DNA from: Alphaproteobacteria bacterium UBA3760
Lineage (GTDB): Bacteria > Pseudomonadota > Alphaproteobacteria > Rs-D84
Length of the DNA: 61,531 nt
Reading direction: 5' to 3'
Assembly (NCBI GenBank): GCA_002371155.1
Contig: DFGC01000012.1
Coordinates: 1-61,531, forward strand
In this document: in pieces, positions 1-41,968 of the stretch
Layout: the number at the start of each line of letters is the position of its first letter
How positions within the stretch are numbered: position 1 is the stretch's first letter
Translations under genes and position numbers: made by a program
The notes under the pieces: generated by a model
Databases searched by the model: none
Told to the model about the DNA's origin: nothing
Seen by the model: only the letters and a program-made list of their open reading frames with translations

Positions 1-99
1 AACTGGGGAAAATCATGAAAAAATTGCGTATGTTCGATTCGTTAAAATTTGTGTTGGCGACCGTCGCGTGCACATTTATATTAAATGTCGCGCACGCGG
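1..99 (+). repeat. Inverted repeat copy 1 (RBS plus signal-peptide coding leader), partner at 61425..61523
   Basis: Manual alignment to reverse complement of the window end: about 14 mismatches in 99 nt, no gaps. Confidence 0.85.
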
Positions 100-10670: not shown

Positions 10671-10702
10671 AAAAAAACACCGCCAAATTGGCGGTGTTTT
10701 TT
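10671..10702. terminator. Bidirectional intrinsic terminator
   Basis: A-run caccgcc-aaatt-ggcggtg T-run. Confidence 0.8.
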
Positions 10703-10767
10703 TGCATTCATACCTATCAAAAAACACTGCAACAATTTGGCATAATTATGTCCAAAGGGGGGCTTAC

Positions 10768-11844
10768 ATGAAAAAAATTATTTATATCTTATGCACAATA
10801 ACATTGGCAACACCGGCATTTGCATGCACCGGAATCACCCTGCACGCGCGCGATGGCGGGGTTGTTTCCGCCCGCACAATTGATTGGGCAAAAACCGACA
10901 CCGACAACATTTACACCATCGTTCCACGCGGTCATGTGTCGCGGTCTTTTTTACCCGACGGCACCCAGAACGGTTTAGAATTTACCGCAAAATATGGATT
11001 TGTGGGACTGGGCCCTGAACGTCCCGAATTTGTTGTTGACGGCACGAACGAGGCGGGCCTGAACGCGGGATTATTTTATTTCCCAGATTATGGCGAATAC
11101 AAAAAATATGACGAGGCCGCACGCGATATTTCCATCGCCGATTTGCAAGTCGTATCATGGATACTATCTAATTTTGCAACAATTGACGAAGTCCGCGAAA
11201 ACATAAACAATATTCGCGTGATAAATATTTATCCTGATTCTTCGACTGTTCATTGGCGCATCACTGAACCCGGCGGTCGCGTTGTTGTTATGGAAATTAT
11301 CAACGGTGAACCGGTATTTCACGAAGACGAAATCGGCGCAATTGCAAACGCGCCTGGCTTTGATTGGCAATTGACGAACCTGAACAATTATGTAAATTTA
11401 CGCGCCGGCACCGCCGAACCATTAAAATTGGGGCCAGACACCCTGACATCTTTCAGTGGCGGAACGGGGCTGCTGGGGCTGCCGGGTGATTTTTCATCCC
11501 CGTCGCGTTTTGTTCGTGCCGCATTTTTTGGCAATATGGTGGATAAACAACAAAACACAGAATCCACCGTTCCAATTGCATTTCACATATTGAATAACCT
11601 GGATGTTCCATTTGGCACAACATACAACAACGGGCGCGCACCAACAAATATGCCCTCCTCCACCCAATGGACAATTGCCAGCGACCTGGACAACAAAGTT
11701 TTATATTATCACACAATGTTCAACCGCACGATTCGCAAAATTGATATGAACGAAATCAATTTCGAAACCGTTCCATTTCAATTCAGTCCACTGGACGATG
11801 TAAAACGCGAAACGATGATATCTGTTCAAATAAATAAAGAATAA
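10768..11844 (+). CDS. Choloylglycine hydrolase / penicillin V acylase family Ntn hydrolase, secreted
   Basis: Signal peptide then CTGI (N-terminal nucleophile Cys), RTIDW, GLFYFP, LPGDFSSPSRFVRAAF. Confidence 0.92.
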   Translation: MKKIIYILCTITLATPAFACTGITLHARDGGVVSARTIDWAKTDTDNIYTIVPRGHVSRSFLPDGTQNGLEFTAKYGFVGLGPERPEFVVDGTNEAGLNAGLFYFPDYGEYKKYDEAARDISIADLQVVSWILSNFATIDEVRENINNIRVINIYPDSSTVHWRITEPGGRVVVMEIINGEPVFHEDEIGAIANAPGFDWQLTNLNNYVNLRAGTAEPLKLGPDTLTSFSGGTGLLGLPGDFSSPSRFVRAAFFGNMVDKQQNTESTVPIAFHILNNLDVPFGTTYNNGRAPTNMPSSTQWTIASDLDNKVLYYHTMFNRTIRKIDMNEINFETVPFQFSPLDDVKRETMISVQINKE

Positions 11845-15505: not shown

Positions 15506-15567
15506 TTCCCCCTGCAATTCTATCAGAATTATTATATCACAAAACACACAATTTCCAAACGACGAAT

Positions 15568-18210
15568 TTATTGTTTATTTGGCCTATTTATTATCAAATT
15601 TCCACCAACACCGCTCGCCGCGCCGACGCCAGCCACCACCGCACCGGTCTTGATACGCGTTTCTGATTTTGCCGCATCATCGGCAATACGCGATATATCG
15701 TTTTCATTTCCAATCGACGCGCGATAAAGTGATGCATATGTTCCATTTTGCACACCCGACCCAACATCATCATATAAACCGGTATATTCGCGTTTGAATA
15801 CAACCGCCGATTCAATACCGGGCGCATATCCCAACGCGTCTTTGCGTTCATGCAAATCATCCGCCAACGCAACATATTCGCTGTATAAACCCGTCAAAGC
15901 ATTTTCACCACCAACATTTACCGATTTTTCATTAAAACGATACCGCCGCCCACCAACCCTGCATTGCATTTTTTGCGTGTACGCCGCCATATCCGCCGCC
16001 GCATCCACGTCCGCCGATTGTTCGGCAATCCCAGACGCCAATTGCATTCCACCAATTCCCGTCGCCCCAATCGCCGCACCCGACATCAGACGGTTTTTCA
16101 ACGACATTTCGTTTTCCCGCGCAGACGCATATTCTTCTTCGGCCCCCTTTACTTGTTCTTGTAATTTTTTATCGACGCAAACACCGCGACGCAGTATAAA
16201 TTCATCACTTTCACATTCCGATGGCACACATTTTCCATCACGCACAACTAATGTTTTTGCGTGTAATGCAGATTTATTGACATCATCACACATCCAAACG
16301 CACTTGGTCGGATTTTTCGCATTATCAAATTTATATTCATCAATGCACTTTGTCGGAACACAGATTTCACCCCGCACCGCAACCGTTTCCGCATTCAACA
16401 AACCCGGTGCATTCGCATCACAAATTTCAACACACACGCCACTATCCAAATTATACCCATTGACACAATCCGTCGGAACACATTGATTTTCAATCCAATT
16501 TCCACTCGTCGCGTGTAAATTATTTAATTCCGTTGCGGAACATTCACGCGCAAATTTTGCGTGATATGTTTTTGCACCACTTGTCCCCGCCGCAATTTCA
16601 ATTTTAGATTGTGGCGAATCACAATTCGCATCATTTTCACACCAACCCAAAAAACGGAATCCATCGGCAACATCCGTTGGAACATGCTCTATCGTTATGC
16701 CCCTATCATACGCATATTCATAAGTTTTTGATTGTGTTCCACCCGCACCATTATTCCATGACAAAGTAATTTGATATGTTTTGGCATTTGTGCAATATGC
16801 ATTATACGCCCCACTATTCACAATTGTTTCATATCCGGTTTTGCATGCCGTTTCATAATGACATTGCTCATTCACCATACTTAAAACACATGTTGCATTT
16901 GTATTATCTTTGCACGGCAAACAACACAATTTGCCTCCCGTCAGTTCATATTCACCAACACACCCCGTCGGGACACATTGATTATTTTCTGGGCGACCAT
17001 TTAACGCATGCAATCCCGCCAAAACATCCGCGCTGCAAATTTCAACACACACCGCATCATCCGTTCCACCCTTTTCCAAACGATATCCGTCTTTGCACTC
17101 CGTCGGGACACATGGCAACCCTGGTTTTTGCGCTGTTTTCTTTCTTCCTTTCTTTGCATGCAACCGTTTCAAAAAATCATCATTACAAGCATTCTCAACA
17201 ACCAGCGCTTCAACCACATTCTTTTTGATAACCGGTTCTGGTTCCAAATTTATTGTTAAATTTTCACCACAATTTACAATCTGACTTTTATACGTTGAAA
17301 ACCCTACTTGTAATTTGCAATTACTTGGGACATTACTATCCTTAAAATCAAATTTTCCGTCAATATCCGTAGGATGCACCCTGCCAGACGTTCCGGATAA
17401 CTTATCACCGTTTTCATCAACAAAAAATACCGTTGCCCCAGGCAACCCTACCCCATCTTCATCCAACACAACACCACTGACCCGTATTGTTCCGGTCCCC
17501 GTCCGCGCACTGGACGCACCACGCGCCACAACATTTCTGGTATTCTCAACACTTTCTGATTTTTTTGTTTCAACCTTCTTATCGTCCGATTTTAATTGTT
17601 CGGTTGAATTTGACTTTTGTTCCGTATTCGTATTTTCCGATTCCGTGGGCGCAACCGTCGCCACACTTGCGGATTTCTGTGCTGTGGGCGCACTTTCTGT
17701 CTTTGCCGGTTTTTTCGCCGATTCAGGATGCAATTCCGCATATGTTTTTACGCCTTTTTCAATCAACAATTTTTCTATATTTTTACACGGTTTATCATAT
17801 CCATCGCTTTGTCCTTGTTCATTCTTACTTGTACACACCGAATCATTATTTATATGCTCGCGAACAAAGTCCAACAATGTGCCTTTTTTTGTTCCAAACC
17901 CCTGCACAACGGGATAATTTATCTCCGCATTTATATTCGCACCACGATTTACAAACTCTTCAACAATTTTATCACGTCTATTATTACCACAACATTCCGC
18001 AACAGCCAATTCTATTCCAGACATATTTTTATATGTCGGATTTGATATTTTTGCATTGAGCATCTCTGGGTTCTTGTTTAATAAATCCCGAACCCCAGAC
18101 ACATCATCACGCATAATCGCTTTTTCCAAACTAACCGATGCGCCCAACACCGGCGCATGAAACGCGCACACGGCAATCATTATAAAAAAAGCACGATAAA
18201 AACGACCCAT
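15568..18210 (-). CDS. Secreted protein: ankyrin-like N domain, carboxypeptidase-regulatory-like domain, Cys-rich repeats, InlB B-repeat-like domain, conserved C-terminal module
   Basis: Signal peptide; NRGANINA; VSGVVLDEDGVGLPGATV..TDIDGKF; repeated CVPTxCxxxY; paralogue of 13205..15505. Confidence 0.8.
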   Translation of the reverse strand: MGRFYRAFFIMIAVCAFHAPVLGASVSLEKAIMRDDVSGVRDLLNKNPEMLNAKISNPTYKNMSGIELAVAECCGNNRRDKIVEEFVNRGANINAEINYPVVQGFGTKKGTLLDFVREHINNDSVCTSKNEQGQSDGYDKPCKNIEKLLIEKGVKTYAELHPESAKKPAKTESAPTAQKSASVATVAPTESENTNTEQKSNSTEQLKSDDKKVETKKSESVENTRNVVARGASSARTGTGTIRVSGVVLDEDGVGLPGATVFFVDENGDKLSGTSGRVHPTDIDGKFDFKDSNVPSNCKLQVGFSTYKSQIVNCGENLTINLEPEPVIKKNVVEALVVENACNDDFLKRLHAKKGRKKTAQKPGLPCVPTECKDGYRLEKGGTDDAVCVEICSADVLAGLHALNGRPENNQCVPTGCVGEYELTGGKLCCLPCKDNTNATCVLSMVNEQCHYETACKTGYETIVNSGAYNAYCTNAKTYQITLSWNNGAGGTQSKTYEYAYDRGITIEHVPTDVADGFRFLGWCENDANCDSPQSKIEIAAGTSGAKTYHAKFARECSATELNNLHATSGNWIENQCVPTDCVNGYNLDSGVCVEICDANAPGLLNAETVAVRGEICVPTKCIDEYKFDNAKNPTKCVWMCDDVNKSALHAKTLVVRDGKCVPSECESDEFILRRGVCVDKKLQEQVKGAEEEYASARENEMSLKNRLMSGAAIGATGIGGMQLASGIAEQSADVDAAADMAAYTQKMQCRVGGRRYRFNEKSVNVGGENALTGLYSEYVALADDLHERKDALGYAPGIESAVVFKREYTGLYDDVGSGVQNGTYASLYRASIGNENDISRIADDAAKSETRIKTGAVVAGVGAASGVGGNLIINRPNKQ
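15674..16143. repeat. 470-bp direct repeat copy 2
   Basis: See copy 1. Confidence 0.9.
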
Positions 18211-25913: not shown

Positions 25914-28900
25914 TTATATTCCCAACCGATGTGATAATTTCATCATAAATATCGATTCGTTTCCAAACGCATCTGTATTGTTTGGGTTTACGCGATATAT
26001 GAACCCCAACGCACCGTCGGTCCAATCACCAAATTTATGACGATACGACGCATTAAAACGATATTCTCTTTTTTCTGGTGTTAAATCAATATCGCGTTCA
26101 CCTAAATAATTTACAATCAATGCGCCATTTTCATCTACATCAAAATCTGCAAACGAATAACGCATAACACCACCCGTCAATGCCAATGGGACAGACACCC
26201 CAAAATCAAAATTGCCAAACCGCGCACCCGCCGCAAAGGCATTTGATTTCAATTCATCCAATCCCAACACAATCCCATTTGCAATATCCCCAACATGTGT
26301 CCATGCAAATGTTGCGCGCAAAGATAAATCAATATTTTCATCAAACGCATATCGTGCAACCGAATCGATATAATTTGTATCGGCGCCATTCAAATCAAAA
26401 AATCCATAGCCCGCCGCACCCAAAACAGTATTCGATTCGTGCATTGTTCCAACATTCGATACAATCGACAATTTTTCATCACTAAATTTTATTCCTGATT
26501 CTGCGCCCGACGCATCGCCCAATTTTGCTGCCGCGAAATTATTCGACACCACGGGGTCATTTTCCAGCAATCCATCCGTTGTAATATTTCCAACAAACCC
26601 GCGCATGGCAATCGCAAATTTCCCAGACTTTAATTCCGCGCCCGTTGACACTGCATTTGACACCAAACCCAACACCGGATTCGCATGTCCCCAGAAACGC
26701 GATTCGCCATCGGTCAAATAATGCTGATATTCTGATTTTAATCCATACCGGTCATTTGCCCATGCAATCGACAAATTATCCACACCCGACATATTATCAT
26801 CATATAATTTTTCATGACGCGCAAAACCAAATTGCAAATTGCCGAATGATACAGTATTCGCAACATCATGCGTTTTCAATTCACCCAATGTATCACCCAA
26901 ATATAATCCATGCGCCACGCCATCACTCAACATAAATTCATTGTTCCACACGCGCGCCACAGATAATTCTGAATCTTGCGATGATAACACATCATACGCC
27001 GCGACCGGCACAACGACACCACGCGCACCAAATACATTTGTCATACGAACCCCAGATGCCCGGAAACTGTCCCAGAACAAACTATTCCCCGACACGATGT
27101 CACCATTTGCATAATAATAAATTTTTTCATTTGGCGTGACCGCACGTTCCAAATTTATTAAACCATAACCAAACACCTGTTTGAACGCATCCAAATAAGC
27201 CGTCCCCGTCAATGCATCTTTCTGCACAGACATCGTATATTTTGATTTCAGAAACGCAACCAAATCATCGACACTATACCAATCACCCGACGGATTTTTT
27301 GCCAGATATGGCCCATCCGCCGTCAAAGCCAACAAATTGAAAATCGTTTGATTCGACATATATCCAAAAGCTTTTTTCAACGATGCCACCGCCCCAGACA
27401 TCGCCGCAACCGCATATTCTGAATTATCGCCCGGCGCCGCAAAGCACCATGGGTCAACGCCACCAACCCCACTGCCCGCGACACCACACATACGCGAACG
27501 ATATACATTTGTGCCACCATCGTTCCATGTTGACAACTGAACTTTTCCAAACAATGAACCAACGCCATTACCATATTGCGCAACCGTCGTCGCAGCAGCA
27601 GTCCCCAGCACATGTTGAACCGCGACCACAGAAATAAAATTCTTGTCAATTTTATCCGAATACACAACCGGGGCATAATTTTCAAATGTCGCATCCACAC
27701 CCGACGGATAATTTGCAACATTATATCCACCAACCGAATTTACAACAATCGGTGAACCGACATTATAACGACTGAACAAATCGTCTGCATATGCGCCCTG
27801 GCCTGTGCCATACCAATATGCAATCCGTGTTTGAAAATTCGACGATGTTGCACCACCCGCCGAATTAGAAAAACCATCAATCGTGTCATATCCCGACGAT
27901 GTCAACGAATTTGTATTCTGAACAACATTTGCGATAACATCAGGCGTTGGACTTAAACGCAACGCATCATACATTGCGCGATAATTATATATACCACTCG
28001 CACCATCGCCAATTCGATATACCGCCAAAGAACCATACGGCACAAATCCATATAAATCACCCGAACGACCACCCGCCGCCCAACCGGCAACAATTTTCGC
28101 GATATTATTATCCTTCGCCGTTGCCGCCGAATTTTCAACCGCCGTCCCATTTCCAGACAAATCAAAATCTGTATTTTCCGTCCCAACGCAATTCGTGCCA
28201 TTACATCCCGAATTATTATAGTTTTTATATTTATCGACATAACTGACGCCGCCCATAACACTGTCGGCGACCGGTATTCCACCCGCACGCACCAAAGATC
28301 CACTTGAATTGTCTATGCCATTGGCGGTAATCAACGCAACCAGCGCAGGTGTTCCGCCATGAACCTCGGCTGCGACACCAGACATTAACAGAGGAACCTT
28401 GGTCGTTTCATTTCTGAAAATATATTGTCCATAATAACTGTTGGCAAACAAATCATATCCATGCGACATCAGTAAATAATTTTGCATATAATTCGAATCT
28501 GTGGCGGGCAATCCACGCAACCAATCAAAATCAGTTTTTCCAATGGTATTTGCCCAATTATCACCACTGACATTTGCATTTGGATTTATCGTTCCATCAG
28601 TTGCCAAATATGCCGGACTATACGGCACAACCAACGACGGATTGACCGCGTCGTCATCGCCCGTTCCCCCACCCGGGGTATTTCCAGAATGACTGCCTGA
28701 ACCCGTCCCAGAATCATTGTCATTGCCACCGTCGAACGCATCCGTCAACCACAACAAACCGCCAATCACCGCGCCCGCACCGACAACACCCAACAACAAT
28801 TTATGACTGGACGACAGACCGGAAAACATACCTGTATCATCGGCATTTTGATTTCGCGCGCGATAGTTTTTAATCTGTCGATCACATTGCGACGCATCTG

Positions 28901-29153
28901 CGCCATACATTTGTAATATTTGCACCGCACGCATATCGTTATTCATAACCGCAGTGCACACAACCGACACGCCTGTTGAATCGACATAATTTACATCGGC
29001 ACCACTGTTAATTAAATTTTGCACCAAACGCGTATTTCCATTGCGCGCTGCCGACAGCAACTGGGCCGCCATATTAAAATCAGCCCCCGCCGCCATCGCG
29101 CCAACGGGACAAAACACCACACCACCCAAGATAAATTTATTGAATTTCAACAA
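25914..29153 (-). CDS. Ankyrin repeats plus degenerate subtilase-like domain plus putative C-terminal beta-barrel (autotransporter-like)
   Basis: LLSAARNGN..LINSGADVN; WCFAAPG..SGAVA.L..AF..LL..TA..FGYGLINL; alternating beta-strand C terminus; TTG start. Confidence 0.7.
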   Translation of the reverse strand: MLKFNKFILGGVVFCPVGAMAAGADFNMAAQLLSAARNGNTRLVQNLINSGADVNYVDSTGVSVVCTAVMNNDMRAVQILQMYGADASQCDRQIKNYRARNQNADDTGMFSGLSSSHKLLLGVVGAGAVIGGLLWLTDAFDGGNDNDSGTGSGSHSGNTPGGGTGDDDAVNPSLVVPYSPAYLATDGTINPNANVSGDNWANTIGKTDFDWLRGLPATDSNYMQNYLLMSHGYDLFANSYYGQYIFRNETTKVPLLMSGVAAEVHGGTPALVALITANGIDNSSGSLVRAGGIPVADSVMGGVSYVDKYKNYNNSGCNGTNCVGTENTDFDLSGNGTAVENSAATAKDNNIAKIVAGWAAGGRSGDLYGFVPYGSLAVYRIGDGASGIYNYRAMYDALRLSPTPDVIANVVQNTNSLTSSGYDTIDGFSNSAGGATSSNFQTRIAYWYGTGQGAYADDLFSRYNVGSPIVVNSVGGYNVANYPSGVDATFENYAPVVYSDKIDKNFISVVAVQHVLGTAAATTVAQYGNGVGSLFGKVQLSTWNDGGTNVYRSRMCGVAGSGVGGVDPWCFAAPGDNSEYAVAAMSGAVASLKKAFGYMSNQTIFNLLALTADGPYLAKNPSGDWYSVDDLVAFLKSKYTMSVQKDALTGTAYLDAFKQVFGYGLINLERAVTPNEKIYYYANGDIVSGNSLFWDSFRASGVRMTNVFGARGVVVPVAAYDVLSSQDSELSVARVWNNEFMLSDGVAHGLYLGDTLGELKTHDVANTVSFGNLQFGFARHEKLYDDNMSGVDNLSIAWANDRYGLKSEYQHYLTDGESRFWGHANPVLGLVSNAVSTGAELKSGKFAIAMRGFVGNITTDGLLENDPVVSNNFAAAKLGDASGAESGIKFSDEKLSIVSNVGTMHESNTVLGAAGYGFFDLNGADTNYIDSVARYAFDENIDLSLRATFAWTHVGDIANGIVLGLDELKSNAFAAGARFGNFDFGVSVPLALTGGVMRYSFADFDVDENGALIVNYLGERDIDLTPEKREYRFNASYRHKFGDWTDGALGFIYRVNPNNTDAFGNESIFMMKLSHRLGI

Positions 29154-29848: not shown

Positions 29849-30700
29849 ATGATGAAAAAAATCGCGATTTTTGCGCTATCTTTACTTGTCGTCCCCGAAA
29901 TAGTTCTGGGCGCGCCATGTTCGCGCATAAATTTGACGCGTTGTTTGGATTCTGCATGCGCAATAAATTTATCATCAAATCCGGCGGCGCGTTGCCAATA
30001 TTGCGGCACCGCCCAGGCGGGCACCCCCGCATCAAACATGCGAAACATATCCGCCGGCACATCATCAAAAAACACGATAACCGCGCGGGAATTGCACTCT
30101 GCACCGTCTGACCCGGGTGAACGATACATTTGGGCAACAAAATTATGCCTGGGGCGCGTTGAAAATTGCACAACCACAGATGTCGACGAAACATACGACC
30201 CATTGATTGAAAAATCTTGCACGGCGGCGGGTGTCCAACGAACATTTGCACAAATTCAGCAATCAAATGCAAAAACGACACGCAACGCAAATGTATGCAG
30301 TAACGAAATTTCTGTGTGCATAACAAAATCAGACAAATGCAACACAGATTATTCCACATGCACCGACGACGCAAAATTCGACCAATTTTTCGCCGCCTGT
30401 GCCAGTCAATCAACTGGTTGCACCGCATATGTTGATAACATCCGTCGTGATATAAATTCAACACGCAAAACATTTTTATCAACCGTAAATGAATCCGTTG
30501 AATCGATTGCCGCCGCACACAAATCTGCGCGCGAACAAGAAATAACAATAACCCGCTCTAATTGCAGCCGAAATACAGAATTCGACAAATGTGTCGCGAC
30601 GATATGCCAAAACAATACATCGGACAATTGCGCATCCGATAAAAGTATCGCCACCGCACTATGTCAATTCTATAAAACCGCATGCACCAAGGTAAAATAA
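29849..30700 (+). CDS. Secreted Cys-rich protein
   Basis: Signal MMKKIAIF..VLG; many Cys; N domain similar to 36543..39329. Confidence 0.75.
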   Translation: MMKKIAIFALSLLVVPEIVLGAPCSRINLTRCLDSACAINLSSNPAARCQYCGTAQAGTPASNMRNISAGTSSKNTITARELHSAPSDPGERYIWATKLCLGRVENCTTTDVDETYDPLIEKSCTAAGVQRTFAQIQQSNAKTTRNANVCSNEISVCITKSDKCNTDYSTCTDDAKFDQFFAACASQSTGCTAYVDNIRRDINSTRKTFLSTVNESVESIAAAHKSAREQEITITRSNCSRNTEFDKCVATICQNNTSDNCASDKSIATALCQFYKTACTKVK

Positions 30701-30703
30701 AAA

Positions 30704-31876
30704 ATGACAAACAAAAAAAATATTAAATCATGGATTATATTTGGCGCAACATGCGGGATGATTTTCATGAATACATGCTCGGGCGCAGTGGTGTATGAAC
30801 GTGAATCAAAAACACCCGCACAAACAATTGAAAACAAAAGTTCTGTATTTGGCACACAAATATCCAGTGAATCTGACGACACTGCATTGGCGGACCAAAT
30901 TCGCGCACAACGCAACGCACGCGATGCCGCCGATATGCGCAACAACACATCGACCCAGATAAATTCTGGGACATCACAAATAAATTGCGACAACGCATTA
31001 CGCAAATGTATAGAATCACAATGCGGGGCAAAATATACCAAATGCGCAACCGATTCCGACACAACATTTTCAGATAAATTAAATGCATGTCGAAAAAACA
31101 CAACATGCACAGCACACGAATTCAATGTATTCACAAATGAAATCAAGGCAGACAAATCGCAACAGGTTTTACTTGCCCAATATACTGCAACCATAGATTG
31201 CGGCAATCGTTATAATAATTGTATCATTTCCAAATGTGGCACACATTTCAATAAATGCCTGGGTAAAACATCTGGCGACCGCGCGATTGCAGATTGCAAA
31301 CAAATTGCAACCGAATGTAACACATATGATTCGGGTTTAACATCACGCATTGGTTCGGTATTCGCAACACTGCGCACCAATGCCCAGGAACAAATTCGTC
31401 GCGACGAACAACGGTTATACGCATTACGCGATCAAATGCGCCAGGTATGTGAATCATTGGGCGCAATGTTTGACGACCGAACATTGGATTGCGTATTCAC
31501 CGCCAACCTGTATTCTGGCGACAATTATAACACGCCCGTCGCATCGAAAAAATTATACGCGGGCTCTGTATTTGATTGCACACCCGATTGGTTTGGTATA
31601 GACATCACAACATTCAAAGAAAACGCATACAGATTGACCCGCGCACAAAGTTCCGCATCCGCGGCGATGTTGGGATCGGGACTGGGGATTGCCACCGGTG
31701 CAATAACATCGGGCGCAATTGACCGCGCCGTCACATCCCAAGAGGCATTGGATAAATTAAAAACATTATGCGACCGCGCCGGTGGCGATGTCCAAGACGG
31801 CAAATGTGTTTATCCCGACGACACAGAAACCGACACCCAAAATACAAACAATCAAAATAGAAACGGCATCAAATAA
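30704..31876 (+). CDS. Secreted Cys-rich protein with C-terminal glycine zipper
   Basis: 3 nt after previous stop; signal-like N terminus; LGSGLGIATGAITSG. Confidence 0.75.
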   Translation: MTNKKNIKSWIIFGATCGMIFMNTCSGAVVYERESKTPAQTIENKSSVFGTQISSESDDTALADQIRAQRNARDAADMRNNTSTQINSGTSQINCDNALRKCIESQCGAKYTKCATDSDTTFSDKLNACRKNTTCTAHEFNVFTNEIKADKSQQVLLAQYTATIDCGNRYNNCIISKCGTHFNKCLGKTSGDRAIADCKQIATECNTYDSGLTSRIGSVFATLRTNAQEQIRRDEQRLYALRDQMRQVCESLGAMFDDRTLDCVFTANLYSGDNYNTPVASKKLYAGSVFDCTPDWFGIDITTFKENAYRLTRAQSSASAAMLGSGLGIATGAITSGAIDRAVTSQEALDKLKTLCDRAGGDVQDGKCVYPDDTETDTQNTNNQNRNGIK

Positions 31877-31881
31877 CCACC

Positions 31882-32745
31882 CTATCGCGCCTTGGGCTGT
31901 GCATGCATATACACGGTATCGCAACAAAAATCGTATTTGAACCGTTTATCGCTTTTCAATAAATCAGATATAATTTTATTTTTAGATGCCAATGTATCAA
32001 CAATCATAATTCCATCATCATTCAAATTAGAACTCAATTTATTTATAATATTATAAATCTGCCCGACGCCATTTGCATAGCCCAACACATTTGACAGATA
32101 AATAACATCATATTTTTTGCCATTTATGCGCCCCGGTAATTCATATAAATCCGACCATATAAAATTGAAATATTTTGGCATACATGATTTTGCCGCATTA
32201 TATTCAGAATCCGACATAAAAAACATTTTATTCATACGATACGCACCAAAAATATTACACCCACGCATATTTTCCAAATAATTTAATATATCACTATCGT
32301 TATTATCGGAAAATGTATCACGCACAACATCCCAACGACTATATGACGAAAACAAACACGGACAGCCCGACAAAGATTCCAAAACATCATAATATTTTTG
32401 TTTGGGAAAATCTTTTTTCATCATATGCATTTTAACCCGCATAACAAAATACGCATGAATTGAAATATCAAACACATCAACATTTTTTGCACCCGCACCC
32501 GCCAACATCAACGGCATATCACCACCACCACACACCGCCAATGCCGTTTTATTTTCTGGACACGCCCACCATTTTACAATTTCCGATAACATTTCATTTG
32601 AAATTAAATAAGACGGCGAATATTTGGAAAATTGATAACCTTGCCAATCATCTAATCCCACAAATCCCCAATAAATAAAATGCGTTCCCAACGGACGATA
32701 TCCGCGCCGCGCCACATTTGCATCAATATTATATTTTGCCCACAT
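31882..32745 (-). CDS. Putative SAM-dependent methyltransferase (DUF3419/BtaA-like)
   Basis: ALAVCGGGD motif I-like, VDVFDIS, YDVIYLSNVLGY. Confidence 0.65.
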   Translation of the reverse strand: MWAKYNIDANVARRGYRPLGTHFIYWGFVGLDDWQGYQFSKYSPSYLISNEMLSEIVKWWACPENKTALAVCGGGDMPLMLAGAGAKNVDVFDISIHAYFVMRVKMHMMKKDFPKQKYYDVLESLSGCPCLFSSYSRWDVVRDTFSDNNDSDILNYLENMRGCNIFGAYRMNKMFFMSDSEYNAAKSCMPKYFNFIWSDLYELPGRINGKKYDVIYLSNVLGYANGVGQIYNIINKLSSNLNDDGIMIVDTLASKNKIISDLLKSDKRFKYDFCCDTVYMHAQPKAR

Positions 32746-32814
32746 ATTCTAAGCCTCTATAAAAAAATTATAGACAATAATTATTTTATGTCAAACAAAT
32801 TATTCCCGCCCAAT

Positions 32815-32962
32815 CGTCATCCCGCGGACGCGCGGGATCCAGTTGACGACATTTGTCGTCAACCTGTGTCATTTGGCATAATTACGCAAGTTTTGCGTCC
32901 CGCAAAACTGGATACCGCCCTGGCATGACGACACTTTCAACCCCGCCCTTGCGGCGGGACTC
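32815..32962. repeat. Palindromic REP/RPE-like element
   Basis: cgtcatcccgcg..gcgggatcc, nested hairpins, ..ggcatgacg; ccccgcccttgcggcggg also near 59283 and 59670. Confidence 0.7.
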
Positions 32963-32986
32963 GAATGGGGCGGAATTTTTAACAAT

Positions 32987-33016
32987 AAAAAAACGGATGC
33001 CGAAACCGGCATCCGT
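32987..33016. terminator. Terminator of the minus-strand 33047..35320 gene
   Basis: A-run acggatgccg-aaac-cggcatccgt. Confidence 0.75.
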
Positions 33017-33046
33017 ACTCAAAATCCCCAAAGATTTCGAATAGCC

Positions 33047-35320
33047 TTAGTGTTGCATCACTTCAACATCTGTCGTTGACGCCCACGGCACATCTGGACC
33101 ATACGGCGTAATCGGTGTTGGATCACGTCCATCACGCGTACATGCACCATACGACACCGCAACCGAACGATTTTCTATACATACACTGCCCGACATTTTG
33201 CATGCGCCCCGCACTAATGTTGTCGTGTTGCGACCGGGCTTTTGATAATTAATCTGCACGGCTTTGCAATCTTCGGCTGTGGTATACATGCCACAAGTTG
33301 CAATCCAATCCGCACATGATGTCACCCGGGCGGTTGGCGATATCGAATCTGCCACACGCAAATTCCATTTCACATAGAAATCTTTCAAAGAATCTATAGT
33401 GAACGCCTTGCCGAAACCAACCGTATTCAAACCGTCCCCAACATGGCACGAAATATTATTGCGTTCCACGAATGCGGTAATTGCGGTTGCAACACCACCG
33501 GCACCCAAACCAACCCCGGCACCGACCAACGCCGATTTACCACGATTGGATTTTTGCCCCATCAGTATATCGCCAATGTTGTTATATACCTTGTCTAATT
33601 GCGCAACCTGGGTTTCTGCAGTTGCCTTATCAACGCAATTGGCCGTAACCTCACCATTACACAATACACTATCTACGCGTTCCACATTTTGCAAAGTCGA
33701 AAAACGACAATTTCCTCGAACTGGCACTTCTGTAACTCCGCATTTGGCTTTACACTCATCTATCAGATCTCTAACTGTTGTGTTAGAGATAGATCCGCCA
33801 TCTTTATCAACCAATCCTCGTGTCTCGTTCAACGCAACTTTCTTAGTACCATCACCATTTTCTTGCATCAAAGTTATTTCACCATCAGTTGCATTAAACT
33901 CACCACAGTCTGCACTTGCACTATAGAAAACACCATTATCTTTTAAACGAATCTTACACTCATAAACAGAGCTTGCGGTCCGGGTTCCAGTCGCCGAACA
34001 ATTTGGCAAAGCACTCTTAACATTACGATACTTATCATACAGTTTTAGCAAATCCTCGCACCAGTCTGTATCCACATCAGCCGGATTCAATGGCACAGAT
34101 TTCTTCAAATACGTCGATAAAGTATTATCCAATTTTTTATCTTTGATTCTTTGCCACAATTCTTTGCGCATATCGTCATTATTGCAATCAAATGCACGCG
34201 CATCATGCCCCGCCAACGCACCGATACCGGCGCCAACCAACGCACCACCCGGCAACGCAGTCGCCGCAACGGTGCTGGTATCATTTAACAATGAAAAATC
34301 AAACAAATCTTTGTTGCATGTAAATGTCGAACCGGCATCTTGCCAAACCTCGGCGGCACGGTCATCACCCAATGCACCAAACAACCAATTATTTGTAATC
34401 AGTTTATCTTTGTTATATGCCGCAACACGAACCTTGCACACTGCGTTCGTTGCATCCCAACGCGCATAGTGTCCGCGTTCACCATCAACACCCGACACAT
34501 TTCCATTGGCAGTATTATTCACCATTGGACCTTGGGGTTGATTTTTCGACAACGAACCATTCATTTGTTCATTGTATGCGCCAACCTTGTCATTATATTC
34601 ACTTGTCACGCCACCATTTGTCGCAACCGCCGCAAACGAACGACCATATGTGTTTTTATCTAACAATTCACATACATTTTCCGCCTGGTTCGGGGTCAGA
34701 CCCGTTCTGCGCAAAACAAAGTTATAATATTCCGGTTGAACAATTCTGGAATTGAAATCCAACCAAACATCCACAGACGAATCGTAAATACTGCGACAAT
34801 CGACACGAACCTCACGAATACATTTGTCAACCTCGGACGCACAAATGCCCATGCCGTTTATTATCGAATTACGCAAATCTTCATTAAACAAATCATTTAA
34901 TCCATGCGGCAAAACACCACTTTGTACACAATTCAATACCGATTGCATACAATCATCAACGGTAAAGGATGAATTACGCACACCGCCATCCGGGCAATCG
35001 CCATTACCCGGATTATCTGGATTATCCGGGTTGTTCGGATTGTTCGGATTATTCGGGTTGTTCGGATTATTCGGATTGTTCGGATTATTTGGCGTTGGAA
35101 CATCCGGTATTGCCGAACCATTACCACCCGTTGTCGTAACACCTGACACCGCATGTGTCCCAATTGTATTGATTGACATCGTTGGCATTGTCGGCATACG
35201 CGTCCGCCCAGAATTAGAAGTTGCCACAACCGAACGCGACGCGGCATACGCGCCACTGACACAGACAATCGCCGTCATCCCAGCGATACAAGACCATAAC
35301 AATTTAGACGTTTTTTGCAT
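33047..35320 (-). CDS. Secreted Cys-rich protein with NNP low-complexity linker and two glycine-zipper segments
   Basis: Signal peptide; (NNP)n; GGALVGAGIGALAG and ALVGAGVGLGAGG. Confidence 0.78.
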   Translation of the reverse strand: MQKTSKLLWSCIAGMTAIVCVSGAYAASRSVVATSNSGRTRMPTMPTMSINTIGTHAVSGVTTTGGNGSAIPDVPTPNNPNNPNNPNNPNNPNNPNNPDNPDNPGNGDCPDGGVRNSSFTVDDCMQSVLNCVQSGVLPHGLNDLFNEDLRNSIINGMGICASEVDKCIREVRVDCRSIYDSSVDVWLDFNSRIVQPEYYNFVLRRTGLTPNQAENVCELLDKNTYGRSFAAVATNGGVTSEYNDKVGAYNEQMNGSLSKNQPQGPMVNNTANGNVSGVDGERGHYARWDATNAVCKVRVAAYNKDKLITNNWLFGALGDDRAAEVWQDAGSTFTCNKDLFDFSLLNDTSTVAATALPGGALVGAGIGALAGHDARAFDCNNDDMRKELWQRIKDKKLDNTLSTYLKKSVPLNPADVDTDWCEDLLKLYDKYRNVKSALPNCSATGTRTASSVYECKIRLKDNGVFYSASADCGEFNATDGEITLMQENGDGTKKVALNETRGLVDKDGGSISNTTVRDLIDECKAKCGVTEVPVRGNCRFSTLQNVERVDSVLCNGEVTANCVDKATAETQVAQLDKVYNNIGDILMGQKSNRGKSALVGAGVGLGAGGVATAITAFVERNNISCHVGDGLNTVGFGKAFTIDSLKDFYVKWNLRVADSISPTARVTSCADWIATCGMYTTAEDCKAVQINYQKPGRNTTTLVRGACKMSGSVCIENRSVAVSYGACTRDGRDPTPITPYGPDVPWASTTDVEVMQH
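35010..35093 (-). repeat. 9-bp-period tandem repeat encoding (N/D)NP
   Basis: ggattatct/ggattatcc/gggttgttc/ggattgttc/ggattattc units with synonymous variation. Confidence 0.9.
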
Positions 35321-35421
35321 AAAACATTCTCCCTTTTTTTGCTATTATATCATAAAAAAGCCCATAAAAAAACCTTTTTTACAATTTTTTCTATAATTTT
35401 ATGCAATTTGATTATTTTTAA

Positions 35422-35449
35422 TTGACAAAAACACAATATTGTCTATAAT
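35422..35449 (+). promoter_or_regulatory. Consensus sigma70 promoter, probably leaderless transcript
   Basis: TTGACA-16 nt-TATAAT; ATG starts 7 nt downstream of the -10 element. Confidence 0.65.
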
Positions 35450-35455
35450 ACAAGC

Positions 35456-36472
35456 ATGTTAAAAGCAACCGATTTTATAAAAAAGTGCAAAATTCCAGCC
35501 ATTTGGACGATTTGTTATATTTTCGTCACCTGGGCAATTTTACGCATTTTATTTAATTTTGAAATGTTCAGTCAAATGGACTGGATACGCATTTCGCACG
35601 CACATTTACGCGGAATCGGCGGTTTAACATTTTGTTTGATAATAATTTCAACAATTCCATTATATATCGCAACAACATCTATTGTTATCAAAACGCAAAA
35701 GCCCCTATTGGCCATACCTGTTCCGCATTTTATATCCAAAATCATGAAAAAATTTTTCCCATCAGAAATGACAACGGACGAAAAAACATCTGACAAAGAT
35801 TCTGAATCCGAATCGCCAACCATAACCCACGATGTTGCAACCGAACAATTCCCGGCGGAAATGCGTGGCGCATTTATTCGTGCCCGCACCCACCCCGACC
35901 GCATAAACGCACCAATCTGCACGGTATGCACAACCACACCAAATGTATATCCCGACACGCCATCCGCCCCACAATCATTTAATGATGATGTTCCAATTCC
36001 ATCTGACTTTGATTTTGATGACGCACAACCTGCGCCCGCCGCACCCGTATTCCAAGATATAAATTTTTATAACGACGATGACAACACCGATACAGAAAAC
36101 AACGATAACACACAAACGAACACAACAAACTTTATTCAATCGGACACCGATTACGACCCGACCGAAATAATTGAGCATTTTGCAAAAACGAATCGGCAAT
36201 TTGATATTTTACCAAACGGAATTATATTAACAAATGATGCCGCAATCGCTGTTCACACCGATTCGGATTTTTGGATTATGGACGACCCGATATGGTTTGC
36301 ATCCGGCAAAACCCGCGAATCACCATTGAACGATTTACGCAATATTGCAACCGAACGCGGATTGCGTGCTGTTTTTTACCTGGGCGCAGACAACATTATG
36401 AACGCACCCGCCAAAATCCAAGAATGGGAACAAAACGGAATCCATGTTGTAAAAAAATTATCCGATTTATAA
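35456..36472 (+). CDS. Hypothetical membrane protein (two N-terminal TMs, acidic linker, C-terminal globular domain)
   Basis: 338 aa ORF with hydrophobic N terminus. Confidence 0.75.
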   Translation: MLKATDFIKKCKIPAIWTICYIFVTWAILRILFNFEMFSQMDWIRISHAHLRGIGGLTFCLIIISTIPLYIATTSIVIKTQKPLLAIPVPHFISKIMKKFFPSEMTTDEKTSDKDSESESPTITHDVATEQFPAEMRGAFIRARTHPDRINAPICTVCTTTPNVYPDTPSAPQSFNDDVPIPSDFDFDDAQPAPAAPVFQDINFYNDDDNTDTENNDNTQTNTTNFIQSDTDYDPTEIIEHFAKTNRQFDILPNGIILTNDAAIAVHTDSDFWIMDDPIWFASGKTRESPLNDLRNIATERGLRAVFYLGADNIMNAPAKIQEWEQNGIHVVKKLSDL

Positions 36473-36542
36473 TAAAAAAACACCGCCAAAAAAACCCACG
36501 AAAATCTTTTAAATTTTCGTGGGGATAACCTGGGCGGTGCGT

Positions 36543-39329
36543 TTACATTGGTATATCTTGACTGGTAATCACCGGTTGCGCCATACGCGTGCATACATTT
36601 CCAGTATAATTTTTCACGACACCACCGCCACTGTGTCCACCAATACCAATAAACCAATTAGACCCGCCAAATCCGATACCACCACTGCTGCCATTTTCAT
36701 CGACCGTGTTATAAACATCTTTCATATTTTCACACATAGTTGTATAACTGGTCAATTTACAGGTATCCGTATCCGATGAATAGACCGCATTCATAACAAT
36801 TTTACCAATCATATTGCCAAATGTATCCACCTGAACAAATTCACCGCGTCCAGATTTTTGTTGATTTAACAATTCGTTCATCGTCATTCCGTCAATAACC
36901 AACCGTACATCATATACACCGGGGCGCGCCTTGGATTCACGCAAACCCGCAAAATTATTGCTAACAATTTCTTTGGGCGTCACAGTCAGCCCAGACATTT
37001 TTTTCAGGTTTTGCAACACTGACCCAATTGTCGGTGCCTCGACGAACACATCTGATTTTCCATTATCTACATCGGGCACATCGGTTGCCATCGCCGCACA
37101 CAATGCCGCCTTGATTTCATCGCTTTGTTGTTCCAACGCCCCAGCAACCAATTCATTGTATTTTTTAGAATAATTTTCTGTTGCCTTGTCTAAACCGGCA
37201 TTTACAATTGACATTATCGCAGAATCCAACAAATGCGGATATCGCGCTGTGTCGCGGGTTTCGGAACGTTTGCTGTTTGAACCACGAATTTGCGTCATAT
37301 CGCGCCCGTTCACGCACATACTGATTTTCGGGTCAGATGTCAACAACGCAATCTTTTGATTTATTTTATTTTGTGTCGATTGCAATGTCGATAACACGCG
37401 TCCCTTTATTACAGAAGTCCCATCAACATTTTGTATGTTGTCCGAATAATTTTCGATATCCAATTCATATTTACCAAATTTAACATCATCAGATGTACTG
37501 GTCGTTTCTTTGATTTTAACATTCCCAAAGGTCACCAAACCTTCGATAACAAAACTGCCATCACGCGCCTTGTAACTGGTTAAACTGTCCGCACCCATGG
37601 TTGTGTCATTATCAAATGCCGCACATGCAATATCATCACCACATATTTCGATATACTTTGCATTTACCGCATTTTGACAATTCGTCAGCAAAGAATTATC
37701 TATATCCAAATAAACACCTTGGACAATATTATCGATAACATCCCATGTGGCATCTTGTCCATTTTCTTGGCACGCAATCAGTTTTGCCAACGGACACATA
37801 TCACGAATTGATTGCAAATCCAACCCGACACATTTCGAATAATCAGACCCGCATCGGTCTTCATCGGTCAAACAATTTTTAACCTCGGTCGTGCACGCGT
37901 CAACCCGCATAGATGCCAATCGCGCATAAACATAATCCAAAATTTTTGGTTCGGCGGCAATACACGGTTCAATTTGCACACTGCATAACGCCCGCATAGT
38001 TTCCGGACGCGACAAACACATATCATACGAACCGTCCGGATTACTCGGGTCAATATTATCTTTACACGCGGTCTGGAAACACGATGAAATATCACTGATA
38101 CAATTCATACGCAAATTCGATTCTGCAATCAGTTCCGCAGATTTAATTTCCGGCGCGGCTTCAACCAAGAATGTATCCCACACTTTATCTTTGACGGCAA
38201 CACATTGCTTGGTCACACTTTCGCACATTGTTTTCTTGGCCATCAACACATCGTATGTCCCCGCCGCAATAGAAATATTTGTCGCACCGGTTTTAACTGT
38301 TTTATTTTTCTTGTTTGATTGTAAATTTTGCATTGCAACCGATGACGCACATTTGGAAAAATCATCACCACACCCCGCGGTTGTCTGCATACATTGCTTG
38401 AACCGAATCGTGCATTGCCCCAAATCGTATTTATTAGCATTTTGATATTGCTCCAACGCAGCATCACGCATGGCGGTCTGCGCCGTTTGCAATTTTTTCA
38501 TCGAAGAATTTCTTTGTTGTTTCAAACTGTTTTCATATGCCGTGCAATCAGATTTTATTTGTTGCGCATACATCAATTTCAACATAGACATACTGGCACG
38601 ACATCCCGGAATTTGCGCCGCACACATTGATGACGCCGATGAATACAACGCATCACCCGTTTTGTTTGATATACTATCTTCGGCCGCAAAATCATCTATA
38701 TCTTCATAAACATCATTCCACGCATCCAAATCCAGATTCAGGCTGCGCGTGCGTTTGGCATTACTGGTTGCCGATTGCGCCGCCGCATTTGCCGCACTGT
38801 CCACCATTTTTTGCACTGCATCCGCGTCCGCACCCATATTTATGCGGTCAACCCCCATCGTCGCCATAGCATAACTTTGTTCGTCCAATTTTTGGATTTC
38901 TTCCAACACAGTATCCAATTCCATATGCCGATTACTGCATAAACAACGCCCACCATTGACATTATCCAACATACAAAAAGAATCCATACATCCAAAATAT
39001 TTTGTTCTGCACTCTTCACTGACGATTGTGTTTGTTGTGGCACCGGCAATTTGTGTTCCACTTGATATAACTTTCTTGGTCGTTGCCGCACGCGCCGAAA
39101 CCGCCCCAGATTTTTGTGAACCCAACCCCGTGTTTGTTGCCACCGTCCCAGACCGCCGAACCGCCAAACGCGCAGGCATCGCCAACCCGCCCGACGAAGT
39201 GTTCGCCACATCTGTTGAATTCGTTGTGGCCGGCACACGACGCAATGTCGTCGAACTGCGAACCGCCGCATCCGCCCCAAAACCCACAAAACAACAAAAT
39301 AAAAGATTCAGCGCAATCAGTTTTTTCAT
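36543..39329 (-). CDS. Large secreted Cys-rich protein
   Basis: 928 aa; signal peptide, Arg/Ala/Thr-rich linker, repeated Cx6C..CxxD[YF]SKC modules. Confidence 0.8.
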   Translation of the reverse strand: MKKLIALNLLFCCFVGFGADAAVRSSTTLRRVPATTNSTDVANTSSGGLAMPARLAVRRSGTVATNTGLGSQKSGAVSARAATTKKVISSGTQIAGATTNTIVSEECRTKYFGCMDSFCMLDNVNGGRCLCSNRHMELDTVLEEIQKLDEQSYAMATMGVDRINMGADADAVQKMVDSAANAAAQSATSNAKRTRSLNLDLDAWNDVYEDIDDFAAEDSISNKTGDALYSSASSMCAAQIPGCRASMSMLKLMYAQQIKSDCTAYENSLKQQRNSSMKKLQTAQTAMRDAALEQYQNANKYDLGQCTIRFKQCMQTTAGCGDDFSKCASSVAMQNLQSNKKNKTVKTGATNISIAAGTYDVLMAKKTMCESVTKQCVAVKDKVWDTFLVEAAPEIKSAELIAESNLRMNCISDISSCFQTACKDNIDPSNPDGSYDMCLSRPETMRALCSVQIEPCIAAEPKILDYVYARLASMRVDACTTEVKNCLTDEDRCGSDYSKCVGLDLQSIRDMCPLAKLIACQENGQDATWDVIDNIVQGVYLDIDNSLLTNCQNAVNAKYIEICGDDIACAAFDNDTTMGADSLTSYKARDGSFVIEGLVTFGNVKIKETTSTSDDVKFGKYELDIENYSDNIQNVDGTSVIKGRVLSTLQSTQNKINQKIALLTSDPKISMCVNGRDMTQIRGSNSKRSETRDTARYPHLLDSAIMSIVNAGLDKATENYSKKYNELVAGALEQQSDEIKAALCAAMATDVPDVDNGKSDVFVEAPTIGSVLQNLKKMSGLTVTPKEIVSNNFAGLRESKARPGVYDVRLVIDGMTMNELLNQQKSGRGEFVQVDTFGNMIGKIVMNAVYSSDTDTCKLTSYTTMCENMKDVYNTVDENGSSGGIGFGGSNWFIGIGGHSGGGVVKNYTGNVCTRMAQPVITSQDIPM

Positions 39330-39399: not shown

Positions 39400-39429
39400 A
39401 AAAAACCTGCAAAAAATTGCAGGTTTTTA
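39400..39429 (-). terminator. Terminator after rplQ
   Basis: A-run acctgcaa-aaaa-ttgcaggt T-run. Confidence 0.75.
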
Positions 39430-41500: not shown

Positions 41501-41968
41501 CTAACTACCCGATGCAACGCCACCAACAATTTTCACCCATTGCTTAGTACCATTTGCACCAGTTCCCTTTATATAACCACACGCCGAAACATTATACCCA
41601 TTAACGTTCGTGGTATCACAAGCACTCCCTGGTTTTGCCAAACGATCTCCCAAACCAGTAACCGCCGTTCCATTGGCGGTAACAACATTCTGTTGCGTAT
41701 CTGCCCTAGTTTTCAACGCATTAACATCAGAATAAACCGCATTAACCTTGGTACCAACATATTTTGTTGTTGCAACCTTGACAACATCATCTTTGACACT
41801 TTTCTGTGCCGCGGTTGTCGGCTTTCCCGAAACAAATTCAGGATACGCAGGACTAGGACTATCACTTGGGAAACTAAAACCACTATCCGTCACAACCGGT
41901 TGTGCCGCATTTGCCACACCAATCATAAACAGCCCAAAAATCGCCGAAAAAAACAGTATTTTTTTCAT
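41501..41968 (-). CDS. Small secreted protein, core-only member of the KIATTKY family
   Basis: RBS AGGAG, signal ending ANA; VKVATTKY..coiled coil..KPGSAC..CGYI..WVKI. Confidence 0.8.
   Translation of the reverse strand: MKKILFFSAIFGLFMIGVANAAQPVVTDSGFSFPSDSPSPAYPEFVSGKPTTAAQKSVKDDVVKVATTKYVGTKVNAVYSDVNALKTRADTQQNVVTANGTAVTGLGDRLAKPGSACDTTNVNGYNVSACGYIKGTGANGTKQWVKIVGGVASGS

Follow-up and report, generated by a model that had tools for sequence, protein, structure and literature searches.

Several described protein classes carry Cys pairs placed whole helical turns apart on antiparallel helices, including the CHCH proteins (twin CX9C), the small Tims (twin CX3C), the plant alpha-hairpinins and the CS-alpha/alpha toxins (both twin CX3C). 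CHCH- and Tim-type proteins reside in the mitochondrial intermembrane space, an oxidising extracytoplasmic compartment, where disulfides staple them. A similar arrangement is predicted in a cluster of six genes, here called A to F, in a 61,531-nt contig (DFGC01000012.1, assembly GCA_002371155.1; hereafter, the window) of Alphaproteobacteria bacterium UBA3760, a member of the order Rs-D84. Proteins A, B and F share a six-Cys module which, as in the CHCH and Tim proteins, appears to be stapled by disulfides outside the cytoplasm, with a presumed hairpin pairing. The Cys spacing of i,i+7 (two turns) lies between those of CX3C (one turn) and CX9C (three turns). In place of the CX9C spacing of the CHCH family (PF06747), CX6C and CX5-7C are found, and the PF06747 profile gave no Pfam match at E ≤ 0.1 for A, B or F. 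The secondary structure of the predicted models is compatible with antiparallel helices. Unlike the CHCH proteins, Tims and alpha-hairpinins, the module has a third Cys pair that closes a conserved C-G-x-D-[YF]-x-x-C loop, and its units are embedded in bacterial secreted proteins of 280-930 aa, with no sequence or fold match to those families.

Secreted, all-helical repeat proteins with one disulfide per helix pair are also known from a host-associated bacterium, namely HcpA, HcpB and HcpC of Helicobacter, which consist of Sel1-like repeats. The Rs-D84 proteins matched neither Sel1 (PF08238) nor any PDB sequence or fold; they differ from the Hcp proteins in Cys spacing and repeat length, and have variable tails and glycine zippers in addition. 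For an envelope braced by disulfides, the nearest functional analogy is the Cys-rich outer membrane complex of the chlamydiae, in which a lineage-specific set of Cys-rich envelope proteins (OmcA, OmcB, and MOMP) of an obligately host-dependent bacterium is thought to be cross-linked by disulfides. However, no match to Chlam_OMP3 or Chlam_OMP6 was obtained with Pfam or NCBIfam, and OmcB is beta-rich whereas the Rs-D84 proteins are helical. A further difference is that peptidoglycan genes are retained in Rs-D84 (PMC12306168); an SLT gene is present in the window. Invariant GxxxGxxxG patterns, finally, are found in the Proteobacterial envelope proteins SlyB/Pcp and the Rickettsia 17-kDa antigen, and also in B and D. 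The profiles PF13488, PF13441, PF13436, and PF05433 gave no match at E ≤ 0.1 for B or D, which, unlike SlyB/Pcp, are not lipoproteins and carry their zippers inside large Cys-rich proteins. The zipper pattern aside, no defining profile or spacing of these known systems was matched; the Rs-D84 proteins are members of no described family and represent a new variation on a known structural theme.

Library searches led to the same view. Pfam and NCBIfam, run on all nine genes of the block, returned nothing for A, B, D, E, or F; PADLOC (anti-phage defence) and PHROGs (phage) gave no match for A to F, and the F, B, and E alignments, used as profiles, found none in PDB. Foldseek searches of the predicted F model against PDB and BFVD, and of the B model against PDB, yielded best E values of 0.025-2.6 with TM scores of about 0.1, which do not amount to a match. 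A literature search on twin Cx6C also found no match. A similarity of the F C-terminus to levivirus coat proteins (E 1.5) was not significant and was discarded. The claim of a new module, made in a first-pass annotation from the sequence alone, was therefore upheld by searches of Pfam, NCBIfam, PDB sequences and folds, and BFVD. What is new is the protein family and the module; the principle, disulfide-stapled helices, is known.

The genes and module copies concerned are the following.

29849-30700, plus strand: gene A, a 283-aa secreted protein with 20 Cys (open reading frame (ORF), signal-peptide-like N-terminus)
30296-30421, plus strand: six-Cys module of A, aa 150-191 (regular expression, hidden Markov models (HMMs))
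30704-31876, plus strand: gene B, 390 aa, 19 Cys, with a signal peptide and two modules (ORF, alignment, AlphaFold)
30986-31108, plus strand: module 1 of B, aa 95-135 (regular expression, HMMs)
31199-31318, plus strand: module 2 of B, aa 166-205 (regular expression, HMMs)
36543-39329, minus strand: gene F, a 928-aa secreted protein with 36 Cys, 34 of them in the mature protein (ORF, signal peptide)
38202-38414, minus strand: module 1 of F, aa 306-376 (regular expression, HMM, model)
37770-37895, minus strand: module 2 of F, aa 479-520 (regular expression, HMMs)

The regular expression C.{6}C.{4,6}C..[DKH][YF][STN][KT]C matched five times (A aa150; B aa95 and aa166; F aa306 and aa479), and no sixth match was present anywhere in the six-frame translation of the window. 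The five occurrences in three genes listed by the first-pass annotation were thus recovered as the same sequences. Its four-Cys motif is real, but the unit is longer: the motif forms the first half of a unit of about 45 residues, C-x6-C-x4-6-C-x6-C-x11-14-C-x5-7-C, with two further Cys after it. In module 1 of F, the canonical four Cys (306-327) are followed by a 41-residue insert containing a beta hairpin, and only then by the last pair, C369-x6-C376.

Could this recurrence have arisen by chance, or from a composition rich in Cys? In favour are the shortness of the module and the low scores, 11-25 bits, with which HMMs built from a single family recovered the copies of the other families at the correct positions (best of 2,000 shuffled decoys, 8-12). 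Against this stand the shuffle controls: when A, B, D, and F were shuffled jointly 20,000 times, the motif was matched at least once in a fraction of 5e-05, and the bare C6C(4-6)C6C skeleton, which occurs five times, had a shuffled mean of 0.03. An HMM built from all family copies matched exactly the five sites among the ORFs of the window and 5,368 ORFs of related loci, with no match in D, E, the X family (see below), or any other ORF of this set, and the module is conserved in hundreds of homologues. The probability of an artefact was accordingly judged to be negligible and the explanation was rejected. Profile-profile comparison (hhalign) gave probabilities of 83% for A-B, 85% for B-F, and 56% for A-F. 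At the level of sequence comparison, the module is real and common to A, B, and F, with a weak cross-family signal. D had also been considered as a carrier and was ruled out by hhalign and the module HMM.

Both AlphaFold models (F and B) place the opening C-x6-C of every module on a single helix and C-G-x-D-[YF]-x-x-C in a loop; the next helix bears the last Cys pair or lies beside it. Among about 99 gaps between adjacent Cys, 26 are equal to 6, and CX6C is enriched in A, B, and F (P ≤ 0.0006 in each) and in D (P = 0.015). Because residues i and i+7 share one helical face, this enrichment makes a stapled helical hairpin the natural reading, and the module probably contains three disulfides that lock the hairpin, with a predicted connectivity of C1-C6, C2-C5, and C3-C4. 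The relation C1+C6 = C2+C5 had first been taken to favour an antiparallel pairing; any two CX6C pairs satisfy it trivially, and it was given no weight. The helical character proposed for the module in the first-pass annotation agrees with both models.

The F model (AlphaFold2, 67 sequences; mean predicted local distance difference test (pLDDT) 70.4, predicted template modelling score (pTM) 0.44) begins with 100 disordered, S/T/A/R-rich residues, continues with a body that consists of long helices, the longest of 58 residues, and holds the two canonical modules, and ends in a beta region with long strands. In the B model (AlphaFold, 61 sequences), residues 90-290 are helical with pLDDT of 80-93 and are followed by a small sheet, then by the glycine zipper with pLDDT below 50, and then by a helix. 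B thus combines a helical/beta core with two modules, a glycine zipper, and a variable tail. A has a single canonical module, preceded by an N-terminal Cys motif, and a third Cys cluster that is looser.

The N-termini of A, B, D, and F consist of a basic stretch followed by a hydrophobic stretch, as is typical of Sec signal peptides, in agreement with the proposal that the proteins are secreted. Every Cys of the mature proteins is invariant at overall identities of 40-65%, including all 20 in A. Counted after the signal peptide, the number of Cys was even in 67/69 homologues of A, 168/174 of D, and 182/194 of F, and odd in 148/157 homologues of B, in which it ranged from 15 to 77. Gains and losses occur in pairs: C356 and C368 of B are both present in 78 homologues and never singly, and in F the pairs 860/923 (phi 0.98) and 752/760 (phi 0.91) turn over together. 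When the proteins were split at their glycine zippers, D showed odd, even, and odd numbers in its three regions (168/174), and in B 15 Cys precede the zipper while the number that follow it is even (146/157). In X, a Cys-rich protein of 600-870 aa encoded directly after B in many other Rs-D84 genomes, the sequence was even, exactly one invariant Cys, even (25/26).

Overall parity, paired gain and loss, and regional parity are what genuine cystines predict, and indicate that the Cys of these exported proteins would form real disulfides, as the first-pass annotation had supposed. The pattern of exported disulfide proteins, an even Cys number with gain and loss in pairs, was found, with B and X as systematic exceptions that have one extra Cys each. 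The odd/even/odd distribution in D would be explained by a disulfide joining its N- and C-terminal regions. The parity of B points to one unpaired Cys in its core (one of C249, C263, and C292), and that of X to one unpaired Cys in its anchor domain. These lone Cys may be free, may form homodimers, or may link B to X, the last being a conjecture. Alternatively, the periplasm could be strictly anaerobic and the Cys could be ligands for metals or redox partners, which would buffer thiols or store zinc, iron, or sulfur. The anaerobic habitat, a lineage without a respiratory chain (PMC12306168), and the lack of a Dsb gene in the window would be consistent with such a function. It is nevertheless very improbable, given the even parity and the pairwise gain and loss of Cys, the dominance of i,i+7 spacing on helices, the absence of any CxxC or His-rich ligand pattern, and the size and structure of the proteins, which are unlike short metallothionein-like peptides.

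Three segments with invariant glycines, in B and in the neighbouring protein D, were identified.

31661-31720, plus strand: glycine zipper of B, aa 320-339 (invariant columns)
33047-35320, minus strand: gene D, a 757-aa secreted protein with 28 Cys (26 mature), without the module of A, B, and F (ORF, alignment, HMM)
34208-34255, minus strand: glycine zipper 1 of D, aa 356-371 (alignment)
33470-33535, minus strand: glycine zipper 2 of D, aa 596-617 (alignment)
35456-36472, plus strand: gene E, 338 aa, few Cys (alignment)

The zipper of B reads G324-x3-G328-x3-G332-x3-S336, all four positions being invariant. GxxxGxxxG zippers are typical of channel-forming helices, as in VacA and MscL. One explanation would be a trans-envelope channel, or an uptake or secretion device, that compensates for missing standard transporters: the zipper helices of B, D, and X would oligomerise as pores, the C-terminal beta hairpins of F would sit in the outer membrane, and E would be the inner-membrane and cytoplasmic partner. 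Invariance of the zippers is in its favour, as is the parity of D, which fits two membrane passes with N- and C-terminal regions on the same side and joined by a disulfide; long helices followed by long strands in the F model also fit. Rs-D84 lacks the usual importers for sugars, for amino acids, and for peptides, and also most biosynthesis (PMC12306168). On the other hand, the block lacks genes for an ATPase or for any secretion component already known, Foldseek returned nothing that resembles TolC, secretins, Wza, or another channel, and the zippers are weakly hydrophobic and modelled with low confidence, so that a channel was considered quite improbable.

The tail of B is hypervariable. In strains with 93-97% identical cores, B is 454-587 aa long, compared with 390 aa in the window, owing to 60-200 extra residues. 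In the window, the tail (31830-31876) is nearly all lost through a clean in-frame deletion that keeps the last conserved residues, NRNGIK. In other lineages, the tail is made up of repeated small Cys-paired units. Such differences in length and content among strains with closely similar cores suggest that the tail may be exposed to diversifying pressure.

The arrangement of the genes was compared among 79 fetched species-level loci, using tblastn and ORF analysis. The window, with a GC content of about 42%, is part of a bacterial chromosome, and its minus strand carries the str-S10-spc-alpha ribosomal protein operons with secY, rpoA, and rplQ. Six genes adjoin rplQ in the order F, E, D, C, B, A; past A follow a small gene, U1, and U2, which encodes a secreted ankyrin protein. 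A and B, 3 nt apart on the plus strand, converge on C and D on the minus strand, as the first-pass annotation had described for two co-transcribed genes facing two others; E, a further plus-strand gene, lies between D and F and is divergent from D. Of the two minus-strand genes, D encodes a secreted, Cys-rich protein that lacks the module, and the product of C is not Cys-rich and has no signal peptide.

Synteny across the related metagenome-assembled genomes (MAGs), which the annotation had put forward as a check, was positive. A lies directly upstream of B in 36/37 loci, E and D are divergent neighbours in 59/60, and F is directly downstream of rplQ in 47/62. Flanks of 9 kb or more on each side of F were available for 37 loci; among these, D and E were found in 31, B in 28, and A in 27, and 21 had all of A, B, D, and E within 10 kb of F. 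The order rpoA-rplQ-F, E<>D, and A>B was kept across the examined loci; the blocks are at times rearranged (e.g., U2- A+ B+ C+ E- D+ F+) yet remain together, and this cohesion extends to termite-gut lineages in which F is 41% identical.

Transcription signals, by comparison, are divided among the genes.

39401-39428, minus strand: terminator-like hairpin between rplQ and F (hairpin scan)
36495-36523, minus strand: terminator-like hairpin after F (hairpin scan)
32993-33016, minus strand: terminator-like hairpin after D (hairpin scan)

E is preceded by a perfect promoter, TTGACA-16-TATAAT, at 35422-35449, and C also has a consensus promoter. As F, E, D, and C each have terminator- or promoter-like signals of their own, only A and B clearly share one transcript.

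Considering these data together, A, B, and F, with D and X, appear to be exported, mainly alpha-helical, disulfide-stapled proteins, and an envelope-associated structural or attachment assembly is the most likely reading, to which we would give about an even chance. A, B, and F would descend in part from one unit of about 45 residues with six Cys, in which a helix with C-x6-C leads into a loop closed by C-G-x-D-[YF]-x-x-C and then into a return helix with C-x5-7-C. The fixed pairs would be functional ones: A is translationally close to B, and E diverges from D. A and F would be soluble or peripheral, periplasmic or outer components, whereas B, D, and X would be held in a membrane or an oligomer by their invariant glycine-zipper segments, and the variable, repeat-rich, Cys-paired tails of B and X would face the outside. 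The unpaired Cys of B could provide a covalent link, B-B or B-X. Physical interaction, the membrane and side of anchoring, and the role itself are what we infer.

Several observations weigh against an assembly of this kind. D and X lack the module. The glycine-zipper stretches are moderately hydrophobic only and are modelled with pLDDT below 50, and the F and B models reach medium confidence (pTM 0.42-0.44). Judging by their signals, F, E, D, and C seem to be transcribed separately. A scan of the window for [WFY]CxxC returned only the zinc finger of ClpX and spurious frames, with no Dsb-like gene, and in a lineage reportedly without respiratory chains (PMC12306168) the quinone-dependent DsbB route is doubtful. 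The original proposal that the genes encode subunits of one undescribed envelope complex is thus partly supported, by synteny and export signals, with putative contacts between the products and seemingly separate transcription units for F, E, D, and C.

The other explanation to be weighed is that the products are independent secreted or surface proteins (adhesins, effectors, or antigens) that form no common machine and have in common only a protease-resistant, disulfide-stapled building block, clustered through local duplication and shared regulation. This is a possibility with a smaller share of our confidence than the assembly. It would account for the seemingly separate transcription of F, E, D, and C, the shuffled block order of some genomes, the hypervariable, antigen-like tail of B, the secreted ankyrin protein nearby, and the presence in the genome of further, unrelated Cys-rich surface proteins (X paralogues, with immunoglobulin (Ig)-like or Listeria-Bacteroides repeats). 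It fits less well with the A>B and E<>D pairings, which are nearly absolute over deep divergence, with highly conserved cores in which all Cys are fixed, unlike typical fast-evolving effectors, and with exactly one unpaired Cys each in B and X, which suggests a partner. A more detailed form of the assembly reading is that A-B-(X)-D-E-F make up a novel envelope apparatus of disulfide-stapled helices, anchored by zippers and not by beta-barrels, with B and X joined covalently through their lone Cys, for attachment of the symbiont to partner cells or metabolite uptake from them. In this full form it is unlikely.

The A, B, F, D, and X families belong to the core genes of Rs-D84, a gut order with reduced genomes, and are specific to it. 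Gene F was found in 380 species in a scan of one genome per species. Homologue clusters numbered more than 1,500 for F, 826 for B, and at least 743 for D, all unnamed or annotated as "hypothetical protein" and all from Alphaproteobacteria MAGs. For A, an exhaustive HMMER search of 1.84 billion representatives returned just 61 matches, all A-like, and the remotest came from the same kind of MAG. The 79 fetched loci derive from MAGs of rumen, hindgut, human, mouse, chicken, and termite guts, labelled as Candidatus Enterousia, Alphaproteobacteria, or "Rickettsiales bacterium". Rs-D84 genomes are smaller than 1 Mb, without a respiratory chain and with few standard transporters; they encode many unexplained membrane proteins, and a partner-dependent lifestyle has been proposed (PMC12306168). 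An obligate-symbiont lifestyle is probable for the order, which comprises Candidatus Enterousia and its kin.

This order is widespread in human, livestock, bird, and termite guts. About 8 kb, or about 1% of a reduced genome, is spent on these conserved, Cys-rich exported proteins, which makes them prime candidates for the interface with host or partner cells. The six-Cys module and two further short signatures can be converted into family models, Cys parity predicts which regions occupy the same compartment, and the single unpaired Cys in B and in X predicts a covalent partner. A non-respiring anaerobe that makes dozens of structural disulfides would also pose a biochemical puzzle. The locus thus offers a lead, through a presumed function, into the biology of an abundant, uncharacterised clade of gut symbionts.

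The remaining features of A, D, and F, of C, and of the neighbours X and U2 are listed here.

29918-30004, plus strand: N-terminal Cys motif of A, aa 24-52, C-x7-C-LDS-x-C-x11-RC-x2-C (A/F-specific pattern)
38937-39011, minus strand: N-terminal Cys motif of F, aa 107-131, C-x6-C-MDSFC-x9-RC-x-C (A/F-specific pattern)
36546-36848, minus strand: C-terminal beta-rich domain of F, aa 828-928, with long strands and a Gly-rich loop (DSSP of the model)
35177-35200, minus strand: N-terminal RMPTMPTM motif of D, aa 41-48, just past the signal peptide (motif scan)
35006-35098, minus strand: Pro/Asn repeat linker of D, aa 75-105, PNN eight times and then PDN (translation)
31882-32745, minus strand: gene C, 287 aa, 8 Cys, no signal peptide, with weak similarity to class-I S-adenosylmethionine (SAM) methyltransferases
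15568-18210, minus strand: X-family paralogue, 880 aa, 36 Cys, with an Ig-like CarboxypepD_reg domain and Cys repeats
13205-15547, minus strand: second X-family paralogue, 780 aa, 44 Cys, with Listeria-Bacteroides repeats
25914-29153, minus strand: U2, a 1079-aa secreted ankyrin-repeat protein (Pfam ankyrin, signal peptide)

The first-pass annotation had further assigned a common N domain to the genes at 29849 and 36543 (A and F). The pattern C.D[SA].C.{8,12}RC.{1,2}C was found in 38/38 A and 86/102 F homologues and in 0 of about 5,200 other ORFs, and was matched in 2/200,000 shuffles. Profile tests revealed no A-F link in this domain, and homology by profile was therefore set aside; the pattern was kept as a signature specific to the A and F families.

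A second short signature, RMP[TS][ML], was present in 172/174 D, 45/157 B (including those of loci L013, L017, and L021), and 4/194 F homologues, compared with 0/1027 background ORFs; it may be a sorting or anchoring tag. The Pro/Asn linker of D differs in composition and length among homologues. E contains two N-terminal transmembrane (TM) helices, an acidic linker, and a conserved C-terminal domain of about 100 aa; this domain had no Pfam or PDB match, and a Pfam scan of 19 E-family members gave stray 2-TM matches only. C, which matched Methyltransf_23 and Methyltransf_31 of Pfam below cutoff, is by sequence similarity a methyltransferase-like protein, presumably cytoplasmic. It was found in about 41 loci at varying positions, as a frequent but mobile neighbour.

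The tandem X paralogues of the window share a near-identical C-terminal anchor of about 200 aa, in which two glycine zippers and a single, lone invariant Cys are located. Homology of X to B, D, or F was ruled out, the similarity being of a zipper-like, low-complexity kind only. U2 contains ankyrin repeats at aa ~20-92, a long unmatched middle part, and a C-terminus of alternating hydrophobic and polar stretches. In 25-28 loci its gene is conserved next to A, in divergent orientation, and, as a secreted ankyrin protein, it hints at a possible eukaryotic or cellular partner.

Two of the fetched loci are unusual. The termite-gut MAG contig JAISKV010000001.1 (L044) encodes, some 6 kb away from its main F, another F paralogue that is shorter (801 aa) and adjoins A, B, and X-like genes. 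The other, CAVGNU010000007.1 (L063), is a contig under the label Bacteroides fragilis; it carries rpoA, rplQ, and F of the Rs-D84 type and is most likely mis-binned.

An Rfam scan of the window identified three tRNAs and no further RNA match. Within the ribosomal operon, a gene for a 155-aa secreted protein (41501-41968, minus strand) is inserted between rpsK and rpoA and is shared with the closest relatives only (6-7 loci). Two secreted paralogues (15-1760, plus strand, and 60037-61509, minus strand) are located at opposite ends of the window in inverted orientation. Neither was matched by Pfam; they have similar signal peptides and share a near-identical internal segment of about 60 aa (IKIATT.YNE.QFAPVET.LDAAVAAVDTVVTQTM.QAQQIDQIANEKQTRPDE). 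A gene of the choloylglycine (bile-salt) hydrolase family (10702-11844, plus strand) is kept in a genome reported to be smaller than 1 Mb.

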